DNA of 64,000 nt from Bacteroidota bacterium (GTDB lineage: Bacteria; Bacteroidota; Bacteroidia; AKYH767-A; OLB10): the NCBI GenBank assembly GCA_023251535.1, contig JAHEYP010000014.1:11726-75725 (forward strand), written 5' to 3'. Below the pieces are notes generated by a model, which worked only from the letters and a program-made list of their open reading frames with translations, was not told the DNA's origin and ran no database searches. Position numbers and translations under genes: made by a program. Positions 49,689 to 58,719 of this stretch are shown in pieces. Position 1 is the first letter of the stretch. Each line of letters begins with the position of its first letter.

Positions 49689-49880
49689 ATGAATAATAGG
49701 GTGTCGTTGAAGCTTGGCGTTTTAGCAGTAGTTGGTTTATTACTGTTCAATTTTCCGTTGCTGAAAACGGTTAATTCTGCTGCCTTTTCTTCGAATTTAC
49801 CGATGATGCCTATTTATTTGTTTGTTTGCTGGATTCTTTTTGTCGCCCTCATTTTTTTAATCGTAAGGAGAAAGATATGA
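49689..49880 (+). CDS. Small 2-TM protein translationally coupled to the sensor kinase (CbrX/DUF485-like)
   Basis: 63-aa ORF; its TGA stop overlaps the kinase ATG (ATGA at 49877-49880). Confidence 0.45.
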   Translation: MNNRVSLKLGVLAVVGLLLFNFPLLKTVNSAAFSSNLPMMPIYLFVCWILFVALIFLIVRRKI

Positions 49881-52579
49881 ATCCGGTGATATTATCGATC
49901 GTATTTGTAGCGTACTTGCTATTACTGTTTTTCATCGCCTTTAAAGCTGAAGGATGGAAGTGGAAGGGACGAAAGATTACTTCATTACCTTTAGTTTATG
50001 CTCTTTCCGTTTCGGTGTTTTGCACGGCGTGGACTTTCTATGGAAGCTTAGGATCTGCATCAACAGGTTCACTTAATTTCTTGGCGGTTTATTTGGGTCC
50101 AACCATTATGGCGCCTTTAGGGTTTTTATTACTTAAAAAATTAGTACGTGTTTGTAAATTACAACAAATAACTTCGTTAGCAGATTTGATCTCATCTCGC
50201 TATGGGAAAAATATTTCATTGGGTTCTATTGTTACTGTTTGTTGTTTTATAGGTATCGTACCTTATCTTTCTCTTCAGTTAAAAGCTATCTCCGAAAGTT
50301 TTAGGATTTTAGGAGGGTATTCGTTCGATTATAAAGGCGTTGATACAATTGCTCTTGTAATCTCTTTCGTCTTAATTGGTTTTACTGTATTGTTTGGGTC
50401 TCGTAAAACACTGACTAGCGAACAGCATAGTGGATTATTAGCAGCAGTAGCTTTTGAATCGATTGTTAAGTTATTTGTATTCCTTCTTGCAGGATTAATT
50501 ATTTCGTATTTGGCATGGAATTCGCTTTCTGTCGGATTGAATTCAGATAGAATTGTGTCGGGATTCGCTTCTTTTTTTAAGGAAAAAGAGCATAGTACTT
50601 TTAATTTTGGTGATTGGTTCTGGGTTGCTTTAATCTCTGGATTTGCTTCTATTTTATTGCCTCGAATGTTTCAAATTAATGTGGTTGAGAATGATTCTGA
50701 ACATAATCTTACGCATTCAGTATGGGTATTTCCTTTTTACCTTTTATTGATTAATATTTTTGTTTTGCCGATTGCTTATGCAGGTTATTTGTTTCTCGGG
50801 AACAATACTATAACAGATTATACTTTATTGCTGCTTCCTTTAAAGTATAATTTGCCTTGGTTGGCTGTTTTCGTTTTTATTGGTGGGATTTCAGCTGCTA
50901 CGAGCATGGTAATTGTAGAAACGATTGCATTGAGTACAATGTTTAGTAATAGTTTAGTAATTCCTTTTTTAGCTCGTCAAGCTAATAGTAATTCGAAGAT
51001 TTCTTCTATTGGAAACAGTACTTTGTTTATCCGGAAGTTCGGCGTGTTCTTTACTATTTTGTCGGCTTATTTGTATTATGAGTTTGTGAGTCATTATACA
51101 AGTTTGATTTCAATCGGATTAATTTCTTTTGTTTCTGTTGCTCAATTTGCTCCTTCAGTTTTTGGAGGATTATATTGGAAGTCAGGAAATAAATACGGTG
51201 CATTGTCAGGTATTATAATAGGGTTCGTTGTTTGGTTTTTTACACTCATCGTTCCTTCGCTCGCACAAAATAATATTTTAAGTCGCGATATAATTGATTA
51301 TGGTTTGTTTCATCTAGCTTGGCTTAAGCCAAATTCATTGTTTGGTCTCGATGGATGGGGTTCAATTGCACATGCTTCGTTTTGGTCACTGTTGTTTAAT
51401 TTTGGTTGTTATATTGTTGTTTCTGTGTGGACAAATCAAACAGAGGAAGAAAAAGCTCAAGCCGAATTATTTGTCGATATTTTCAAGTATTCTGAAGTGT
51501 ATGAGTCTTCGGTTGTTTATAAGGGTGTAGCTTATATTCCCGATGTGAAAGCTTTACTTGCGAACTTTGTAGGTGATGTTCGTGCCAATAACTTAATTAA
51601 CGCCTTTTCTAAACGCCATAAAATTGAAAATGATATTTCTGCAAAGGCAGATCCTCGTATGGTGGCTTTCGTTGAGCGTACATTAAGTGGAATCGTGGGA
51701 TCGGCATCATCTCGTTTAATGGTTGCTACTGTCGTTAAAGAGGAAGAAGTGAGCGTCCAAGAGTTGATGGGTGTACTAAAGGAATCGCAGAGCCTTATCG
51801 CTTTGAACAATGAATTGAAACGAAAAACAATTGAGTTGAATAATACTAAAAGTGATTTGGAGGATACAAATCGTAAGTTAATTCAGCTTGACGAATTGAA
51901 GGACGATTTTTTAACTACCGTAACTCATGAATTGCGTACTCCAATTACTTCTATTCGTGCATTTTCTGAAATTTTGTATGATAATCCTGATATGGAGATC
52001 GAAGATCGTCAACATTATACTAACATTATAACTCGCGAAACGGAACGTATTACTCGATTAATTGCTCAAGTTTTGGACTTAGAGAAATATGAATCGGGAC
52101 GGCAAAAATTGCACCTTACTCGATTTGATTTATATGATGTTGTTATAAGTGTTATTGAAGGTATGCAACAGCTGGTTGCTGAAAAGCAAATCAATATCAA
52201 TGTCACAGAATTTTCTCACTTAGTGATTGCTGATGAAGATAAAATTACACAAGTACTAATCAACTTAATTAGCAATGCAGTGAAATTTGTCCCTCAAAAC
52301 ACAGGAGAGATTTCTATCGAATGTTCATTAGTTAGTGGTATGATTAATTTAGTGGTATCTGATAATGGTAAAGGAATCGATCCTCAGTTTCATGAGTTGA
52401 TTTTCGATAAATTCTATCAAGCAGAAAATCAAACTATACGTAAACCGAAAGGTAGCGGATTAGGTTTAGCAATCTGCAAAAAAATTATGCAACTGCATGG
52501 CGGTGATATTTCGTTGAGAAGTATTCTTGGTCAGGGCAGTGAATTCACAATAATATTTCCAATTAATAGGGAGGTTTAG
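49877..52579 (+). CDS. Sensor histidine kinase with N-terminal sodium:solute symporter (SLC5/SSS) domain, CbrA/CrbS-like, no receiver domain
   Basis: N-terminus YALSVSVFCTAWTFYGSLGSA...SLADLISSRYG parallels the CbrA SSS domain (about 13 TM helices); coiled coil; HisKA H-box LTTVTHELRTPITSIRAFSEIL; HATPase_c (DNGKGIDP...GSGLGLAICK). Confidence 0.8.
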   Translation: MNPVILSIVFVAYLLLLFFIAFKAEGWKWKGRKITSLPLVYALSVSVFCTAWTFYGSLGSASTGSLNFLAVYLGPTIMAPLGFLLLKKLVRVCKLQQITSLADLISSRYGKNISLGSIVTVCCFIGIVPYLSLQLKAISESFRILGGYSFDYKGVDTIALVISFVLIGFTVLFGSRKTLTSEQHSGLLAAVAFESIVKLFVFLLAGLIISYLAWNSLSVGLNSDRIVSGFASFFKEKEHSTFNFGDWFWVALISGFASILLPRMFQINVVENDSEHNLTHSVWVFPFYLLLINIFVLPIAYAGYLFLGNNTITDYTLLLLPLKYNLPWLAVFVFIGGISAATSMVIVETIALSTMFSNSLVIPFLARQANSNSKISSIGNSTLFIRKFGVFFTILSAYLYYEFVSHYTSLISIGLISFVSVAQFAPSVFGGLYWKSGNKYGALSGIIIGFVVWFFTLIVPSLAQNNILSRDIIDYGLFHLAWLKPNSLFGLDGWGSIAHASFWSLLFNFGCYIVVSVWTNQTEEEKAQAELFVDIFKYSEVYESSVVYKGVAYIPDVKALLANFVGDVRANNLINAFSKRHKIENDISAKADPRMVAFVERTLSGIVGSASSRLMVATVVKEEEVSVQELMGVLKESQSLIALNNELKRKTIELNNTKSDLEDTNRKLIQLDELKDDFLTTVTHELRTPITSIRAFSEILYDNPDMEIEDRQHYTNIITRETERITRLIAQVLDLEKYESGRQKLHLTRFDLYDVVISVIEGMQQLVAEKQININVTEFSHLVIADEDKITQVLINLISNAVKFVPQNTGEISIECSLVSGMINLVVSDNGKGIDPQFHELIFDKFYQAENQTIRKPKGSGLGLAICKKIMQLHGGDISLRSILGQGSEFTIIFPINREV

Positions 52580-52581
52580 TT

Positions 52582-52944
52582 ATGTATAAAATATTGATTG
52601 CCGATGATGAGCCAAACATCCTTTTATCGCTTGAATTTTTAATGCGAAAAAGTGGATATAATGTGTTTATTGCTCGAAATGGCTCGGAAGCTATGGAAAT
52701 CATAAATCGTGATAAACCTCAGTTGGTGGTATTAGATATTATGATGCCGGATATTGATGGATATCAAATTTGCACTCATATCAAATCATCAAAAGAACTG
52801 TCAGATTGCAAAGTAGTATTTCTTTCCGCCAAGGCAAAAGAAGGTGATATTAAAAAAGGATTAGAAATTGGAGCGGATGCGTATCTGACAAAACCGTTTT
52901 CTACCCGTGTATTAATGCAAAAAATAAGTGAACTGTTAAAGTAA
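52582..52944 (+). CDS. Stand-alone CheY-like response-regulator receiver domain (no output domain)
   Basis: ILIADDEPN...VVLDIMMPDIDG...AYLTKPF; 120 aa; starts 3 nt after the kinase stop. Confidence 0.85.
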   Translation: MYKILIADDEPNILLSLEFLMRKSGYNVFIARNGSEAMEIINRDKPQLVVLDIMMPDIDGYQICTHIKSSKELSDCKVVFLSAKAKEGDIKKGLEIGADAYLTKPFSTRVLMQKISELLK

Positions 52945-52957
52945 AATTCATATCACC

Positions 52958-54880
52958 ATGACACCATATCGTCAATTATATCGTCGTAGTATTGAAAACC
53001 CTGAGGCTTTTTGGGGTGAGCAAGCATCGTTAATTAAATGGTTTAAATCGCCAGAGAATATTCTTTCTCGTGATGAAAAAGGACTTTATCGATGGTATAG
53101 TGATGGTGTAATGAATACTTGTTATTTAGCGGTCGATAAACATGTGGAAGAGGGCAGAGGTGATCAAGTTGCTTTGATTTATGATTCTCCCGTTACAAAG
53201 GTTGTAGAGAAGTTTACTTATAATGATCTGCAAAAAAATGTTTCTACGCTTGCTGGTGGATTGCAAAAATTAGGAGTACAAAAGGGTGATCGTGTTGTGA
53301 TTTATATGCCTTTAGTTCCCGAAGCTTTATTTTCAATGTTGGCTTGCGCTAGAATTGGAGCCGTGCATTCAGTGGTGTTCGGCGGATTCGCTCCACATGA
53401 ATTAGCTGTTCGTATTGATGATGCGCAACCGAAAGTAATAATTTCTGCTTCTTGCGGAATAGAAATCGATCGCGTGATTGCTTATAAGCCAATGCTCGAT
53501 GATGCAATTAGTAAATCGATTTTCAAACCTCAGCATACTGTGATTTTACAACGTCCTATGATGACCGCCGATATGTGGCCCGGTCGCGATGTTGATTATA
53601 ATGAATTGGTGCAAAATTCCCCTTCTGCAGATTGTGTTCCATTAAATGCGAATGATCCTCTTTATATTCTTTATACGAGTGGAACAACAGGTAAACCGAA
53701 AGGAATATTACGCGATAATGGAGGTCATGCTGTAGCATTACGTTTTAGCATGGATCATATTTATAATGTTAAAGCCGGTGATGTGTTCTGGGCTGCAAGT
53801 GATGTGGGTTGGGTTGTAGGACATAGCTATATGGTTTATGGTCCTTTGTTGCAAGGCTGCACTACATTGCTCTATGAAGGAAAGCCTGTCCGCACTCCCG
53901 ATGCAGGAGCTTTCTGGCGAGTTGTGGAACAACATAAAGTGAATATTCTATTTACTGCTCCAACTGCATTCCGTGCTATTAAGAAAGAAGATCCCGAAGG
54001 TGAGTTGCTTCACAAGTATGATATTTCTTCATTGCATCGTTTGTATTTGGCAGGTGAACGTTGTGATGTCCCAACTTGGTATTGGGCTACTGAAATGTTG
54101 AAAGTTCCTGTTGTTGATCATTGGTGGCAAACAGAAAGCGGATGGCCTATCGTGGCTCAAATGCCTTCTATTGAGGAACATCTTTTATTGAAGCCTGGCT
54201 CTGCAGGTAAACCGATTCCGGGATATAAAATTGATGTGCTTAATGAAGAGGGTGAATTATTGATTCCTAATCAAGAGGGATTTGTTGCAATCAAATTACC
54301 TCTTCCTCCCGGATGCTTACCTGATTTGTACAACGATACTGATCGTTTCATTTCATCCTACCTTGAGAAATTCCCTGGTTACTATTTAACAGGTGATGGC
54401 GGATATAAGGATGAAGAGGATTATGTTTATATTATGGGTAGAGTTGATGATGTGATTAATGTCGCAGGACATCGATTATCTACCGGTGAAATGGAGGAGA
54501 TGGTGGCAGCTCATCCGTTCGTTGCAGAATGTGCTGTAGTTGGCATAGCCGACGAATTAAAAGGTCATCTTCCTCTTGCTTATGTTGTAGTTAGAGATGG
54601 TGTTGTGCCCAACGAATTACTTATCGAAAAGGAATTAGTAAAGTTGATTCGTGATAATATCGGAGCCGTTGCTTGTTTTAAAAATTGTGTTCTCGTTAAG
54701 CGCTTGCCAAAAACGCGATCAGGGAAAATTCTTCGACGCTTACTTCGAAATATCGCCGATGGTGAACATTATATTGTTCCAAGTACTATCGATGATCCTC
54801 TAATTTTAACAGAGGTTCATGATGCACTAAAGGCCCGCCGTATAGGGCAGGCCTTCATAGGTGTGGTGGATGATGAGTAA
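52958..54880 (+). CDS. prpE: Propionate--CoA ligase (PrpE; acyl-CoA synthetase, Acs-like)
   Basis: N-terminus and core (YRRSIENPEAFWGEQA..., LACARIGAVHSVVFGGFA, YTSGTTGKPKG, ...PKTRSGKILRR, C-terminal IDDP...) track PrpE closely. Confidence 0.7.
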   Translation: MTPYRQLYRRSIENPEAFWGEQASLIKWFKSPENILSRDEKGLYRWYSDGVMNTCYLAVDKHVEEGRGDQVALIYDSPVTKVVEKFTYNDLQKNVSTLAGGLQKLGVQKGDRVVIYMPLVPEALFSMLACARIGAVHSVVFGGFAPHELAVRIDDAQPKVIISASCGIEIDRVIAYKPMLDDAISKSIFKPQHTVILQRPMMTADMWPGRDVDYNELVQNSPSADCVPLNANDPLYILYTSGTTGKPKGILRDNGGHAVALRFSMDHIYNVKAGDVFWAASDVGWVVGHSYMVYGPLLQGCTTLLYEGKPVRTPDAGAFWRVVEQHKVNILFTAPTAFRAIKKEDPEGELLHKYDISSLHRLYLAGERCDVPTWYWATEMLKVPVVDHWWQTESGWPIVAQMPSIEEHLLLKPGSAGKPIPGYKIDVLNEEGELLIPNQEGFVAIKLPLPPGCLPDLYNDTDRFISSYLEKFPGYYLTGDGGYKDEEDYVYIMGRVDDVINVAGHRLSTGEMEEMVAAHPFVAECAVVGIADELKGHLPLAYVVVRDGVVPNELLIEKELVKLIRDNIGAVACFKNCVLVKRLPKTRSGKILRRLLRNIADGEHYIVPSTIDDPLILTEVHDALKARRIGQAFIGVVDDE

Positions 54881-54883
54881 AAA

Positions 54884-55400
54884 TTATTGAATCGCAACTC
54901 GACTTTGATATAATCCTTTGTCGGTTGTTACATTGATAATGTAAATGCCTTTAGCGAACAAACTCTTGTCGAAGCTAACTGTTGATTCTTGATTCTGTAT
55001 TTCTGTAATTAAACTTCCGTTGCTGTTGAAAATTTGTGCCGATTCAATTTTGGTTGAGTTCATGGCAACTATTTCAATGCTGTTTGCAAGATTCTTAACA
55101 ACTAGATTATTGCTGTTGCTGATTTCTTGTATTCCAACGCCATTAACAATTACCGGTGCAGATGTCGCCGGACAACCAATCGAGTCTACAATTGTAACAG
55201 TGTATGTTCCGTTTTGTGTTGCAGTATATGATTGATTTGTTCCTGTTACTATCGGCTGACCATTATAGTTCCATTGGTAAGTTGTTGCTGAAGTTGACGT
55301 TAATACGGCACCGTTAGTAGTAATAATAGGAGTTAATGATCCTTGATAGAAAGGAACGTTAGTTGATAGTGATCCTGATGTTAATGTTCCCGCATTTCCA
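54884..55400. repeat. Near-identical (>95%) direct repeat, copy 1 (3' half of the LamG/T9SS gene)
   Basis: Aligns at offset +1220 to 56104-56620 with only scattered SNPs. Confidence 0.8.
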
Positions 55401-56098
55401 CTTGTTGTTTGATCAGGAATATTAGTTCCGCTTGCTACATTAAAGTTCCAATACCCCACTAACCCCGGTGATGTTGGTGAAATATGACGATTGTATCCTG
55501 CTAAAATTTCAGAACGTGATAAAGCTCGATCCCAAATTCTGGCTTCATCAATTTGTCCACTGAAAAATCTACTTGGTGTTCCACTTCCTTCCGACCATCT
55601 TCCTATACATAATGGAAATGCTGTTGATGGAACTATCGATCCTCTAAATGCAGTAGCCCCAACTTCAATTGTGTTTAGGTAGATTTTTAAACTGTCGCCG
55701 TCATAAACTCCCGCAACATGTTGCCAAGTGTTTAGCGAAAGTGTGTTAATAGGACTTATTATTTCTTTCCATGTTGCCACTAATCCTGAACTGTCGGTGC
55801 CTGCAATTGCAAATGATAATTGCCCCATTCCACCACATCTAATTACATAACCTTGCTTTCCTTGGCTAGAACTGTGTTTGCATATAATGGAATTTGTAAA
55901 CGACGAAGTCCCGAAAGTTGATGGTTTAATCCATGCTTCTAAGGTTACTGTACTATCAAGTGATAAATTGGTGCTATTTACAAAGGAAACATAGCCTGAA
56001 GTTCCACCCAATAAAATCGATTTTGTATTGGCAGTGCATTGTGCATTACAATTTACATAAATTGAGCATAACAATACTAAGGTTGCAAGATGTTTCAT
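54884..56098 (-). CDS. T9SS-secreted LamG (concanavalin-like) domain protein, downstream copy of a tandem paralog pair
   Basis: Signal peptide; LamG-like jelly-roll domain; Ig-like domain; T9SS C-terminal domain (...GIYIINVTTDKGLYQSRVAIQ). Confidence 0.65.
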   Translation of the reverse strand: MKHLATLVLLCSIYVNCNAQCTANTKSILLGGTSGYVSFVNSTNLSLDSTVTLEAWIKPSTFGTSSFTNSIICKHSSSQGKQGYVIRCGGMGQLSFAIAGTDSSGLVATWKEIISPINTLSLNTWQHVAGVYDGDSLKIYLNTIEVGATAFRGSIVPSTAFPLCIGRWSEGSGTPSRFFSGQIDEARIWDRALSRSEILAGYNRHISPTSPGLVGYWNFNVASGTNIPDQTTSGNAGTLTSGSLSTNVPFYQGSLTPIITTNGAVLTSTSATTYQWNYNGQPIVTGTNQSYTATQNGTYTVTIVDSIGCPATSAPVIVNGVGIQEISNSNNLVVKNLANSIEIVAMNSTKIESAQIFNSNGSLITEIQNQESTVSFDKSLFAKGIYIINVTTDKGLYQSRVAIQ

Positions 56099-56103
56099 AG
56101 TTC

Positions 56104-56620
56104 TTATTGTATCGCAACACGACTTTGATATAATCCTTTGTCGGTTGTTACATTGATAATGTAAATTCCTTTAGCGAATTGGCTTTTATTGAAGCTAACT
56201 GTTGATTCTTGATTCTGTATTTCTGCAATTAAACTTCCGTTGCTGTTGAAAATTTGTGCCGATTCAATTTTGGTTGAGTTCATGGCAACTATTTCAATGC
56301 TGTTTGAAAGATTCTTAACGACTAGATTATTGCTGTTGTTGATTTCTTGTATTCCAACGCCATTAACAATTACCGGTGCAGATGTCGCCGGACAACCAAT
56401 CGAGTCTACAATTGTAACAGTGTATGTTCCGTTTTGCGTTGCAGTATATGATTGATTTGTTCCAGTTACAATCGGCTGACCATTATAGTTCCATTGGTAA
56501 GTTGTTGCTGAAGTTGACGTTAATACGGCACCGTTAGTAGAAATAATAGGAGTTAAAGATCCTTGAAAGAATGGTACATTCGTTGAAAGTGATCCTGATG
56601 TTAATGTTCCCGCATTTCCA
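56104..56620. repeat. Near-identical direct repeat, copy 2
   Basis: See copy 1; the 5' halves (LamG domains) diverge to roughly 65-70% identity. Confidence 0.8.
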
Positions 56621-57318
56621 CTCGATGTTTGATCAGGTAAACTTGTTCCTGCTGCAATATTGAAGTTCCAATACCCTGCTAATCCAGGTGAAGTAGGAGA
56701 GATATGACGATTGTATCCTGCAGCTAGTTCAGTTTGCGATACAGCTCTGTTCCATACTCTTACTTCATCAATTTGTCCACTAAAATATCTGCTGGCACCA
56801 ACTCCAGGATCCGACAACCTGCCAATAACGGCCGGGAATGATGTTGATGGTACAATAGATCCTTTGAATGCATATGCGGTAACTTGAATTGTATTTACAA
56901 ATAATCGGGCTGTATCACCATCATATGTAGCTGCAACATGTTGCCATGTATTTAATGTTAATGCACTTGTAGGGCTAACTACATTCTGCCAACTAGTTGG
57001 TGTGCCGGTACTATCAAGACCTGCAAAATTAAAGGATAGCTGTCCGCTGGCACCACATCTTAAAACATAACCCATTTCTCCTTGCGTCCAACTGTGTTTG
57101 CAGAATATGGAATTGGTGTAGTTGTTGGCTCCAAATGCTGTTGGTTTTATCCAAGCTTCCACCGTGATAGCACTGTCAATTTGTAAATTGCTATCTGTCG
57201 TAAATGACACATAGCTACTCGTACCATTTAATACAATTGATTTGGTGTTTGCTGTACATTGGCTGTATGCTTGTGTGCCAAATCCTAAGGTTAAAATAAG
57301 CAGTAGAATTCTTTTCAT
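56104..57318 (-). CDS. T9SS-secreted LamG domain protein, upstream copy of the tandem paralog pair
   Basis: Same architecture as the 54884-56098 gene; C-terminal ~170 aa nearly identical; 5-nt intergenic spacer. Confidence 0.65.
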   Translation of the reverse strand: MKRILLLILTLGFGTQAYSQCTANTKSIVLNGTSSYVSFTTDSNLQIDSAITVEAWIKPTAFGANNYTNSIFCKHSWTQGEMGYVLRCGASGQLSFNFAGLDSTGTPTSWQNVVSPTSALTLNTWQHVAATYDGDTARLFVNTIQVTAYAFKGSIVPSTSFPAVIGRLSDPGVGASRYFSGQIDEVRVWNRAVSQTELAAGYNRHISPTSPGLAGYWNFNIAAGTSLPDQTSSGNAGTLTSGSLSTNVPFFQGSLTPIISTNGAVLTSTSATTYQWNYNGQPIVTGTNQSYTATQNGTYTVTIVDSIGCPATSAPVIVNGVGIQEINNSNNLVVKNLSNSIEIVAMNSTKIESAQIFNSNGSLIAEIQNQESTVSFNKSQFAKGIYIINVTTDKGLYQSRVAIQ

Positions 57319-57339: not shown

Positions 57340-58719
57340 TTATTGTTTAATTATTTTGTGATTATAAGTTTTTCCGTCGACATCTATTTTTATAAAATAA
57401 ATTCCTGAAGGGTATTTTTCAATGTTTATTTCTGATTCTGTAGTGTCAATTTTCTTCTCTAAAATTAATATCTTTCCTTCTGGATTAATTAATTGAATAG
57501 AACTCATTTTTAAAGGTGACTTTATCTTTATGATGCCTGATGAAGGATTAGGTGAAATTTCGAATTTAATATTATCAACATCATTTATTCCGGTTCCAAT
57601 ATTTACCGAATTACCGCATGTAGAATTGTAGAATGAATTCGATACTAGTAATGTCGGGTTATATATTCCCGCGCTTGCATATCGTTTAATGGCAGCTCGT
57701 TGAAGTATCGTTTGTCCGTCGTTACATGAATAGCTATATGCATTGGCACCTATTGATTCTACTCTAAATACACAGTAATCGGTGTGATTTGGATCAGGAG
57801 TCTCAATAAATGGCATACAGTAAATCATTGTAAGATTGTTGCTCCCCCAACCTCCTGAATTGATATCATAACCATATGTGAAGGTTGAGGATCCAATAAT
57901 GTATTGCACAGTACCATTGGTAATACTTAACACAGGATTAGTTCCTGTACTTCCTCCTCCGCTTACCCATTGATTTTGCAATGGATCGAATGTTGCATAA
58001 TGCACGCTGCCTCCTGGTGTAGCATACGCAACAACTCCATCTTGATTAACAATTGTTGGATTTACACCTGTACTTCCACCATAGGTACTCCATTGTTTTG
58101 AAATATGGCTATATGCCGCATAATGCACGCTTCCTCCAGGTGTAGCATATGCCACAATGCCTTCTGCTACACTAAGTGCCGGATTTACTCCTGTTGATCC
58201 TCCATAGGTAATCCATGCATGTTGTGAATACTCATATATGCCAAATGATACACTACCGCCGGGTGTACTGTATGCCGCAATTCCTTGGTTAAGAATAAGA
58301 GTTGGATTTGTGCCCGTAGAACCTCCATAAAAACTCCAAAATTTAATTATAGGATCATATGTCCCAAAATAAATTGATCCTCCTGTTGTAGCCCAACCTA
58401 CAACTCCATCTTTATTATGTATTACTGTGCTGCTTCCTGTGCTGGTAGATCCCGTTTTCCACTGATGCTCTTCTGTATCATATGTAGCGTATTCCACATG
58501 AGATCCGTTTGTGCCAATTACACAACCGTCTTCTATGATATAGCTGGTAATACTACTCATTTGACTAGTGATTATTCCTAAAGCTGGATCGTTTACATAA
58601 AGTTGTAAAGTGGAACCTACTAATTGCGCATTGATTACTAAGCCGTATCCGAAGTTGTTGAATTGAGCTTGAAGCAACACAGGTATGAAAATAAATAAAA
58701 GGAGTAATCGTTTTTTCAT
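57340..58719 (-). CDS. T9SS-secreted protein with internal ~45-aa tandem repeats (YATPGGSVHYA-type)
   Basis: Signal peptide; at least 5 copies of the G..AY(A/S)TPGGSV.(Y/F).. unit; T9SS C-terminal domain. Confidence 0.6.
   Translation of the reverse strand: MKKRLLLLFIFIPVLLQAQFNNFGYGLVINAQLVGSTLQLYVNDPALGIITSQMSSITSYIIEDGCVIGTNGSHVEYATYDTEEHQWKTGSTSTGSSTVIHNKDGVVGWATTGGSIYFGTYDPIIKFWSFYGGSTGTNPTLILNQGIAAYSTPGGSVSFGIYEYSQHAWITYGGSTGVNPALSVAEGIVAYATPGGSVHYAAYSHISKQWSTYGGSTGVNPTIVNQDGVVAYATPGGSVHYATFDPLQNQWVSGGGSTGTNPVLSITNGTVQYIIGSSTFTYGYDINSGGWGSNNLTMIYCMPFIETPDPNHTDYCVFRVESIGANAYSYSCNDGQTILQRAAIKRYASAGIYNPTLLVSNSFYNSTCGNSVNIGTGINDVDNIKFEISPNPSSGIIKIKSPLKMSSIQLINPEGKILILEKKIDTTESEINIEKYPSGIYFIKIDVDGKTYNHKIIKQ

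Follow-up and report, generated by a model that had tools for sequence, protein, structure and literature searches.

Two old tandem LamG-domain T9SS cargo genes of an uncultured Bacteroidota bacterium, with 3' parts very probably homogenised by recurrent gene conversion

Two neighbouring genes on contig JAHEYP010000014.1 of a Bacteroidota bacterium raise the question how a pair of proteins can have nearly the same C-terminal part and widely different N-terminal domains. We analysed the stretch of 64,000 nt that contains them, hereafter called the window. The initial annotation of the window proposed a recent duplication after which the ligand-binding domain diversified; gene conversion of the secretion and anchoring module was named as an alternative.

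Both genes, here called UP and DOWN, were found as open reading frames exactly at the positions that had been annotated, and they are indeed only 5 nt apart (Table 1). This spacer length is kept in all four lineages known to bear the tandem; the spacer sequence varies. Upstream of UP and outside the homogenised repeat lies a further T9SS cargo gene, which ends 21 nt before UP and is syntenic in the loci L080, L085, L087, and L092. A terminator scan found no terminator-like sites between this gene, UP, and DOWN, and judging from the sequence the three genes are probably co-transcribed. The number of sites returned by a sigma-70 promoter scan, which is ill-suited to Bacteroidota promoters, was not above that of shuffled sequence. 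For a neighbouring kinase we considered the idea of a CrbS/CbrA-type sensor with an SSS domain controlling acs, but Pfam shows no SSS domain.

Table 1. Features of the UP/DOWN locus (positions in the window; gene nt are counted in gene orientation)
Feature	Position	Strand	Description
T9SS cargo gene upstream of UP	57340..58719	(-)	459 aa, 41-aa repeats; TIGR04183 44 bits
UP gene	56104..57318	(-)	404-aa ORF; orthologs P0001-P0008
UP divergent part (LamG, UP type)	56638..57258	(-)	gene nt 61-681; 63% nt identity to DOWN; UP crown clade 98%
UP homogenised tract	56104..56637	(-)	gene nt 682-1215; LamG end and linker, Ig-like domain, CTD
UP youngest core tract	56191..56540	(-)	gene nt 779-1128; ~98% to DOWN; identical runs of 70, 97, and 80 nt
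UP/DOWN intergenic spacer	56099..56103	(-)	5 nt, GAACT (gene orientation)
DOWN gene	54884..56098	(-)	404-aa ORF; UP-like architecture, LamG domain diverged; orthologs P0009-P0011
DOWN divergent part (LamG, DOWN type)	55418..56038	(-)	gene nt 61-681; DOWN clade 100% bootstrap in nt and protein trees
DOWN homogenised tract	54884..55417	(-)	gene nt 682-1215; repeat family D1, 95% over 300 nt
DOWN youngest core tract	54971..55320	(-)	gene nt 779-1128

The architecture read earlier from the sequence, a LamG domain followed by an Ig-like domain and a T9SS sorting domain, was confirmed for both proteins. Pfam places Laminin_G_3 (PF13385) at aa 31-199 (E 1.6e-31 in UP and 1.3e-29 in DOWN; 103.8 bits in one protein and 109.9 in the other, with a cut-off of 27.6; profile positions 1-151 covered). 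The T9SS type A sorting domain TIGR04183 matches aa 341-404 with 30.9 bits in UP and 29.4 bits in DOWN (cut-off 23), and PF18962 scores 25.3 bits in one protein and 26.6 bits in the other, slightly under its cut-off of 27. Between aa 259 and 318 the AlphaFold model of UP (pLDDT 88.9, mostly >90 in the LamG region) clearly displays an Ig/PKD-like beta-sandwich, a domain that stays below the Pfam threshold, and a second beta-sandwich in the CTD region at aa 332-403. The segment at about aa 201-220 is almost invariant throughout the family. This LamG family of 404-407 aa is widespread and uncharacterised.

The N-terminus has a hydrophobic segment, for which the model shows a helix at aa 2-12, and Q20-C21 come after it. 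In the 77 homologs that we compared Q20 is at least 90% conserved and C21 is invariant. Sec signal peptides of Bacteroidota usually expose a Gln at the mature N-terminus (the Q-rule; PMC5837995), and judged from sequence and model both UP and DOWN have such a signal peptide. Both proteins end in -SRVAIQ. Taken together these features suggest that the two proteins are exported by the T9SS and attached to the cell surface. A Foldseek search with the N-terminal domain gave 4dqa (BACOVA_03559) as the best PDB match (E 3e-11, 24% identity over 245 columns), followed by PAPP-A (E ~1e-10) and pentraxins (E 1e-8 to 1e-7). These structural neighbours of the N-terminal domain, 4dqa, the LamG module of PAPP-A, the pentraxins, and BoNT H_CN, are all concanavalin-like or LamG jellyrolls used for binding. 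The likeness is one of fold only, the ligands being as different as glycans, proteins, and gangliosides. The best match, 4dqa, is labelled a "putative carbohydrate binding protein" and is itself uncharacterised. On the basis of the modelled fold a lectin-like function appears plausible, and UP and DOWN may have distinct ligands. A match to the TafC family fimbrial protein model (NF052521) was discarded, since its 38-43 bits are far under the cut-off of 410 and it was limited to the shared LamG region.

UP and DOWN align gap-free across 1215 nt, and their identity changes strongly along the gene. It amounts to 38% for gene nt 1-60, to 63.1% for nt 61-600 (59% aa; the annotation had estimated two-thirds), and to about 85% for nt 601-780, and then rises to about 98% for nt 781-1080 and about 92% for nt 1081-1215. 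For the final 520 nt, which had been described as more than 95% identical, we measured 95.0% (26 differing sites); the exact figure is therefore borderline, whereas the homogenised tail itself is real. The final 435 nt are 96.1% identical. The maximum likelihood change point lies at gene nt 681 (2-lnL interval 679-697; 37% mismatch before and 5% after), and its LRT of 200 was matched by none of 500 permutations, which argues against uniform divergence along the gene. Within the tail the window pair shows what appear to be at least two nested conversion events, at nt ~690-780 (89%) and at nt ~781-1127 (98%).

We considered several explanations for this mosaic profile. First, the whole gene could have been duplicated in tandem recently, with positive selection diversifying the LamG domain while the 3' half remained static. 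Such a history would produce a mosaic, and the long stem branch of the DOWN LamG domain is what an earlier burst of amino-acid change would leave. However, the LamG half is saturated at synonymous sites (pS 0.74, dN 0.31), and its omega of 0.10 equals that of the 3' part (nt 781-1212; pS 0.12, dS 0.13, omega 0.11). In addition, three other lineages possess separate orthologs of both LamG types, and a single event cannot make the 3' parts cluster by genome in every lineage. We regard this history as extremely improbable, and the recent duplication put forward in the initial annotation has to be given up. Its second proposal, conversion of the secretion and anchoring module, is strongly supported by the contrast between the dS of 0.13 in the 3' part and the pS of 0.74 in the LamG half, and by tails that cluster by genome.

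Second, stronger constraint could act on the 3' half without any recombination, either on the Ig-like domain and the CTD or on an overlapping nucleotide element. The near invariance of aa ~201-220 in the family is in line with this, as is the need of the CTD to be recognised by the secretion machinery. Nevertheless, the homogenisation reaches the synonymous sites and is therefore not explained by constraint at the protein level. Between more distant lineages the 3' part diverges as fast as the LamG half or faster (ortholog dS 0.7-1.3, dN 0.04-0.10). In the comparison of UP with the 406-aa clade, amino-acid identity is about 67% for LamG and only about 45% for the C part, so slow evolution is not a property of the 3' module as such. 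The ORF list contains no opposite-strand ORF of at least 80 aa over the pair, and constraint cannot cluster paralogs by genome. We give this explanation hardly any credence at all.

The behaviour of the two gene parts was compared among the four tandem-bearing lineages, the window, L080, L091, and L092, which form six lineage pairs. The LamG parts group by type: nucleotide identity between lineages is 76-84% for UP-type and 82-89% for DOWN-type orthologs, whereas UP and DOWN types are always 63-67% identical, and the neighbour-joining (NJ) tree of the LamG half holds a DOWN clade with 100% bootstrap. The 3' parts (nt 781-1212) group by genome. Here the two copies within a genome are 96.1, 91.9, 88.9, and 87.7% identical, against 77-84.5% between more distant lineages, and the NJ tree of this part unites the window pair (100%), the L092 pair (98%), the L091 pair (87%), and the L080 pair together with L087 (100%). 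The same switch in topology is seen in the quartet sites, which flip from orthology to the concerted pattern in every one of the six lineage pairs, in one case from 82:5:12 to 3:50:0 (Fisher p 8e-15 to 1e-28 over the six pairs); in the LamG half 82-114 sites favour orthology and 2-6 the concerted pattern. The tail pairs coalesce later than the lineages split. Since LamG is grouped by paralog type and Ig+CTD by genome, conversion must have taken place independently and recurrently in each lineage. Concerted evolution is thus visible in tract paralogs that are closer within a genome, in discordant trees, in homogenised synonymous sites, and in recurrent independent events.

The position of the boundary was determined for several pairs. 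Change points were found at nt 681 in the window and L095, at 793 in L091, and at 795 in L080, in sequences that are all metagenome assemblies and in which a consensus of mixed strains could blur fine tract maps. In three lineages the tract begins near nt 795 and thus at a domain boundary, the start of the Ig-like domain. Compared with the L091 pair, both window copies share one 3' mosaic that is mostly DOWN-type, and the L091 pair itself is monophyletic in the 3' part.

A boundary at a domain edge could also be the trace of a one-off swap, in which an unrelated LamG gene received its neighbour's Ig+CTD cassette a single time and no conversion followed. A model for this exists in the KLIKK-type T9SS cargo, where a common tail is found on unrelated heads (PMC4404884). 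UP and DOWN, in contrast, are collinear and gap-free over their whole length, their LamG domains, which form sister clades and share 59% aa identity, are genuine paralogs, and the window lineage differs in its boundary (681) and has nested tracts. Within genomes the dS of the 3' part is 0.13 in one lineage, 0.31 in another, and 0.56 in the remaining two, and this variation, together with pairs that are younger than the lineage splits, requires several events. A single swap is consequently very unlikely.

How old is the duplication itself? In the protein tree DOWN is sister to UP plus L003 (84%), within a 404-aa group that is set apart from the 406-aa clade (92%). The duplication would thus be younger than the branching-off of the single-copy 406-aa clade and older than the divergence of L003 and all four tandem lineages, a timing that rests on an NJ protein tree and is open to long-branch effects. 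A duplication node before the L003 split is a further point against a recent origin, as are the orthologs that each LamG type has in other lineages. The DOWN LamG domain has a long stem branch and a short crown, indicating that it changed in a burst long ago and then came under purifying selection. The postulated diversification of LamG therefore did occur, as a past burst on the DOWN stem; it is neither recent nor ongoing (DOWN LamG ortholog dN 0.03-0.05). Purifying selection on both LamG types suggests that two binding specificities have been stably maintained. The likeness to an expanding adhesin or lectin family was overstated, given that copy number is at most two and often back to one. 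Pseudogenisation is occasional among the strains and lineages of the family.

L085 and L086 represent a single-copy variant of the locus. Up to and including nt 1143, L085 agrees with the UP copy of L091 at 74 diagnostic sites in a row, and at the final four sites it is identical to the DOWN copy; it also bears the downstream flank of DOWN. By its sequence the variant is the exact product expected from a crossover between UP and DOWN. The junction falls within nt 1144-1163, a stretch of 20 identical nt that lies outside the 126-nt identical run. An assembler collapse or chimera is disfavoured, as a de Bruijn collapse would be expected in the 126-nt run.

This junction also bears on the more general concern that the alike 3' halves, or the second copy as a whole, might be an artefact of repeat mis-assembly or strain mixing in short-read metagenomes. 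Indeed, all contigs come from short-read metagenome assembly (k141 names), a number of the family's MAG contigs end within the gene, and single-copy and tandem forms occur in the same population. On the other hand, the identical pair is recorded in three assemblies and the tandem arrangement in four diverged lineages from different sources (JGI, ENA, Logan, NCBI). The LamG halves are unique sequences with orthologs of their own, and the copies carry their own SNPs, 26 of them in the final 520 nt, with a longest identical run of 97 nt that is shorter than k=141. Judged from these sequences an artefact is unlikely, and we assign it a very small probability.

Strain variation was also examined in the tail. 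The window and L095 show 52 differences, 15 of them inside 304 nt of the 3' part of UP (p 1.6e-9). The UP copies of both carry some private 3' alleles for which the DOWN copy cannot be the source, so a further donor or recombination between strains may also contribute. A tblastn search of the window and 96 loci found no extra Ig+CTD copies beyond the known genes. The Ig+CTD module alone as protein query gave two weak matches in a search that also missed known family members.

From these results we consider it very probable that UP and DOWN are old tandem paralogs whose 3' parts have been homogenised repeatedly within genomes by recurrent gene conversion. The tandem duplication would have followed the split of the 406-aa clade, the DOWN LamG domain would then have changed quickly, and both LamG types would subsequently have been kept under purifying selection. 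Non-reciprocal homologous recombination between the two direct repeats, presumably of RecA type, would keep the 3' parts alike, anew in each lineage and usually from the start of the Ig-like domain (gene nt ~795), in the window lineage from nt ~681. The process may sustain itself, in that conversion keeps the tails similar enough for more recombination. The LamG halves with their ~63% identity would be too diverged to recombine, and selection may protect them as well. Unequal crossover at the same repeat would remove the 5' part of DOWN and leave one chimeric gene, as in L085/L086.

A selective advantage of the homogenisation is conceivable but doubtful. On this view the Ig+CTD module, with its 45% aa identity to the 406-aa clade against 67% for LamG, would evolve fast between lineages, in step with T9SS components for recognition and attachment that are specific to each lineage. 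Gene conversion would keep several cargo tails matched to this drifting code; the boundary at the Ig start would be the edge of a selected module, and the private 3' alleles would derive from exchange with further tail-bearing cargo genes in a KLIKK-like tail pool.

Comparable systems are known. In the outer-membrane adhesin paralogs babA/babB and homA/homB of Helicobacter pylori, the 5' and ligand-binding segments are described as alike between strains and the 3' segments as alike within a strain (Pride & Blaser 2002, summarised in PMC3960876). There the pattern is attributed to RecA-dependent intragenomic gene conversion, and chimeras and copy-number variation occur (PMC3960876). It is the membrane-anchoring or export module that is homogenised there, with ligand binding located in the diverged part, as predicted for UP and DOWN. 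The bab and hom genes differ from UP and DOWN in that they belong to another phylum, encode beta-barrel outer membrane proteins of the Hop family in place of proteins with a cleavable T9SS CTD, and lie at dispersed loci. Beyond what is seen in UP and DOWN, bab conversion also exchanges the binding region, and in the host it drives antigenic and phase variation.

Within the Bacteroidota, the KLIKK proteases of Tannerella forsythia are clustered T9SS cargo with a near-identical 86-aa CTD and a conserved 30-aa motif; their N-terminal functional domains differ, and the shared repeats led to assembly errors (PMC4404884). Their heads are unrelated protease families, which amounts to tail sharing or domain shuffling, whereas the heads of UP and DOWN are LamG paralogs in two genes only. 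The KLIKK paper (PMC4404884) contains no region-by-region phylogenetic demonstration of concerted evolution. The KLIKK proteins end in -KLIKK and UP and DOWN in -VAIQ; membership of UP and DOWN in this group was rejected, as Pfam and NCBIfam show no protease domain and the C-terminus differs, and the relation is one of analogy only. In Porphyromonas gingivalis the T9SS surface proteins RgpA, Kgp, and HagA rearrange and exchange C-terminal adhesin and CTD modules by homologous recombination or gene conversion (PMC5266723). Unlike UP and DOWN these are large multi-domain protease-adhesins at dispersed loci, with mostly allelic exchange between strains, and they have no LamG domain.

The mechanism is thus already well known, and the locus is a clean, ordinary example of concerted evolution without a new mechanism. 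It provides a compact natural case of concerted evolution at the level of a module in the T9SS cargo of uncultured Bacteroidota, in which four lineages and their strain variants display recurrent conversion, a tract boundary shared at the edge of a domain, a deletion by crossover, and occasional pseudogenes. For annotators and assemblers it is a caution, as paralogous tails of T9SS cargo can lead to wrong orthology calls and broken contigs, and identity taken over the whole gene would misdate the UP/DOWN duplication. For the 404-407-aa family, UP and DOWN are natural LamG variants on one stalk and sorting signal, and as such useful for the study of ligand specificity.

The two 404-aa open reading frames, here designated UP and DOWN by their order of transcription, are separated by a spacer of 5 nt and align over 1215 nt with zero gaps. 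Identity between them is strongly non-uniform along the gene. It amounts to 38% in the signal-peptide codons, to 63% at the nucleotide and 59% at the protein level over gene nt 61-600, to about 85% over nt 601-780 and to about 98% over nt 781-1080; over nt 1081-1215 it is about 92%, with seven mismatches bunched at nt 1129-1140. The final 520 nt are 95.0% identical. Maximum likelihood places the change point at nt 681 (LRT 200, reached by 0/500 permutations; 2-lnL interval 679-697). Identity profile and change point thus bear out the initial annotation, which had described two 404-aa frames with a diverged LamG half and near-identical tails (Ig-like domain and T9SS sorting domain); uniform divergence over the gene length was not seen.

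Coordinates of the genes, loci and protein segments (window positions unless a homologous locus, L, is named)
Feature	Position	Strand	Remark
UP	56104-57318	-	404 aa; first in transcription order
DOWN	54884-56098	-	404 aa; second in transcription order
459-aa CTD protein	57340-58719	-	~41-aa repeats at 57983-58417
Block adjoining DOWN	49826-54880	+
Tandem pair, L091	732-3166
Single-copy gene, L085	5001-6215
Single-copy gene, L086	680-1894
Truncated UP copy, L090	437-1651		nonsense mutation at nt 803
Truncated DOWN copy, L095	2450-3664		W168* (nt 503)
Terminator (GC-rich hairpin and T-run), L087	4305-4400		straight after LamG gene
Terminator, L083	5909-6000		straight after LamG gene
Terminator, L003	3547-3640		straight after LamG gene
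Strain-level hotspot	56167-56470		UP gene nt 849-1152; L095 2078-2381
Jellyroll	up to about aa 250		AlphaFold model
Small beta-sandwich	aa 259-318		AlphaFold model
Disordered linker	aa 322-328		AlphaFold model
C-terminal beta-sandwich	aa 332-403		AlphaFold model

Both proteins match the whole Laminin_G_3 profile (E about 1e-30) and lie above the cut-off of TIGR04183, the curated model for the T9SS type A sorting domain (CTD); a PKD/Ig signal at aa 267-304 is sub-threshold. The closest solved structure to the confident AlphaFold model (77 homologs, pLDDT 88.9) is the Bacteroides ovatus 'putative carbohydrate binding protein' 4dqa (E 3e-11), other near structures being the PAPP-A LamG module, pentraxins and the H_CN lectin-like domain of clostridial neurotoxins. 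A Gln directly after the predicted signal peptide is at least 90% conserved, in agreement with the Bacteroidetes Q-rule (PMC5837995), and is followed by an invariant Cys. By analogy with established type A CTD proteins, UP and DOWN would be exported via the Sec pathway, and the T9SS would then recognize their CTD and either release them or fix them to the cell surface. The LamG domain would be a putative binding head, with the Ig domain as its spacer. The family is of fixed length (404-407 aa) and comes so far only from uncultured Bacteroidota in metagenomes, one close relative being from an activated-sludge assembly.

Homolog searches returned two ortholog sets, one for UP (P0001-P0008, LamG 79-100% aa identity) and one for DOWN (P0009-P0011, 93-94%). 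Complete tandem pairs were compared from the window, from the lineages L091, L092 and L080, from L095, which is another strain of the window species, and from the identical contig L001. Common to them is the order QueA, a 459-aa CTD protein, UP, DOWN, convergent acetyl-CoA synthetase, response regulator and kinase. The LamG half sorts by type, with 76-84% nucleotide identity among UP-type and 82-89% among DOWN-type sequences, and UP and DOWN are always 63-67% identical here, whether from the same genome or from different genomes. The 3' part sorts by genome: within-genome identity is 96.1, 91.9, 88.9 and 87.7%, compared with 77-84.5% among the more distant lineages, and within-genome dS (0.13-0.56) is below ortholog dS (0.7-1.3, more distant lineages). 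Quartet informative sites switch from orthology to the concerted pattern in 6/6 lineage pairs (Fisher p 8e-15 to 1e-28); the window and L080, for instance, give 82:5:12 for the LamG half and 3:50:0 for the 3' part. In bootstrapped trees the LamG half gives a DOWN clade (100%), and the 3' part groups the window pair (100%), the L092 pair (98%), the L091 pair (87%) and the L080 pair with L087 (100%). The combined pattern is the signature that concerted evolution typically leaves; the conversion events are younger than the lineage splits and therefore independent. Stronger constraint on the tail as the cause of its similarity fails, as the tails sort by genome across lineages. Nor is the tail intrinsically conserved, because the next single-copy clade out (406 aa) is about 67% identical to UP in LamG and only about 45% in the C part.

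The 459-aa CTD gene (TIGR04183, 44 bits) precedes UP at a distance of 21 nt, and all three genes probably share a transcript. Most relatives have this gene in synteny, whereas it is absent from L083/84 and L003. Its product contains the internal repeats (123 nt each) and no other confident domains. The block adjoining DOWN, conserved in all tandem genomes, encodes a 917-aa histidine kinase, a 120-aa receiver-only response regulator and acetyl-CoA synthetase, a layout reminiscent of transporter-like sensor kinases controlling acs. That assignment was set aside as lacking Pfam support: a Pfam match was not found for the N-terminal multi-TM part of the kinase (about 680 aa).

Two readings had been offered initially, a recent duplication followed by diversification of the binding domain and, as the alternative, gene conversion of the secretion/anchoring module. 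The proposed comparison of dN/dS per domain (Nei-Gojobori estimates) separates them. Between UP and DOWN, the LamG half has a saturated pS of 0.74, dN 0.31 and omega about 0.10; the 3' part (nt 781-1212) has dS 0.13, dN 0.015 and omega 0.11. The intensity of selection is equal in both parts and the age differs. A recent duplication with adaptive divergence of the head is incompatible with the same omega at a different synonymous age, and it also fails on the separate orthologs of each head and on the sorting of the tails by genome, whereas conversion of the tail predicts the observed dS contrast. Among the LamG regions (gene nt 61-600) of the window, L091, L092 and L080, dN is low in both types; dS of the UP type is about twice that of the DOWN type for the same lineage pairs (1.30 vs 0.54; 1.71 vs 0.91).

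To date the duplication, LamG-region proteins were placed in a neighbour-joining tree together with distant outgroups. The tree recovers the DOWN clade (100%), DOWN as the sister of UP plus L003 (84%) and the 404-aa group apart from the 406-aa clade (92%). DOWN has a long stem and a short crown, and ortholog dN within each LamG type is only 0.03-0.08, so that the duplication is old and the DOWN head underwent a burst of change and has been conserved since, long-branch effects being possible. This would fit two stable predicted binding specificities.

A single domain swap fails, since dS and tract boundaries are lineage-specific. In L091 and L080 the change point is close to gene nt 795 (aa ~265), where the Ig-like domain has its first strand; the broad interval of L092 is compatible with nt ~795, and both strains of the window species have their change point at nt 681. 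With the L091 pair as reference, the window copies are orthologous to nt ~683 and then continue as one mosaic common to both. Their identity rises from 89% over nt 690-780 to 98% over nt 781-1127, which suggests one older, longer tract and one younger, shorter tract.

An assembly artefact fails as an explanation, the identical pair being present in three assemblies and its longest identical run (97 nt) being shorter than k=141. The proposed survey of copy number in relatives found tandem, single-copy and nonsense-bearing forms. Two samples of the L091 population (L085, L086) carry one gene in tandem synteny, with DOWN's downstream flank. Of the 78 sites from nt 600 onward that distinguish L091_UP from L091_DN, the first 74 (through nt 1143) have the UP state in this gene and the last four that of DOWN; it is exactly the product expected of unequal crossover between homogenised tails. 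The junction falls within a 20-nt identical stretch (nt 1144-1163) and not in the 126-nt run of identity beside it, a position that speaks against collapse by the assembler without being conclusive. L083/84, L087-89 and L003 have only the UP-type gene in a different context, followed by an intrinsic terminator and a block encoding 232-aa and 125-aa proteins (zero Pfam hits for either) and an ACR_tran efflux pump; tandem genomes lack the terminator, and their stop codons of DOWN and acs are 3 nt apart. In the UP tree, L083 and L087 fall among lineages that bear the tandem, which means that DOWN was lost in these two. The single-nucleotide nonsense mutations in L090 and L095 may be real pseudogenes or metagenome consensus errors. 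Several MAG or metagenome contigs (L010-L014, L050, L053, L055, L056) end inside a family gene, which suggests repeat- or strain-induced assembly breaks here in other lineages too.

The window and L095 are 99.3% identical over 7.4 kb, and 15 of their 52 differences fall within 304 nt of the UP tail (p 1.6e-9). The alleles are interleaved: some equal the DOWN allele, nine are private to UP of L095 and five to UP of the window. DOWN is excluded as the origin of the private alleles, which may stem from a third donor at another place in the genome, from recombination between strains or from a consensus of mixed strains. A third tail copy was not found in the window or any fetched flank.

Three known systems come closest. 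In Helicobacter pylori babA/babB and homA/homB, as far as the account in PMC3960876 goes, 5' and middle segments are alike between strains and 3' segments alike within a strain, which is ascribed there to RecA-dependent intragenomic conversion (citing Pride & Blaser 2002); UP and DOWN match this pattern and lie outside the Hop/Hom family. Among T9SS cargo the nearest parallel is the KLIKK proteases of Tannerella forsythia, clustered genes with different catalytic heads and nearly identical CTDs (PMC4404884), although UP and DOWN have neither a protease domain nor the KLIKK motif. The third is gingipain/HagA of P. gingivalis, with adhesin modules rearranged by recombination (PMC5266723). We consider it quite improbable that conversion was selected to match cargo tails to a fast-evolving, lineage-specific T9SS recognition, possibly within a larger tail pool. 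At the sequence level, the locus shows every feature of concerted evolution by gene conversion and is a well-supported example of this known phenomenon in an uncharacterised LamG-Ig-CTD family.
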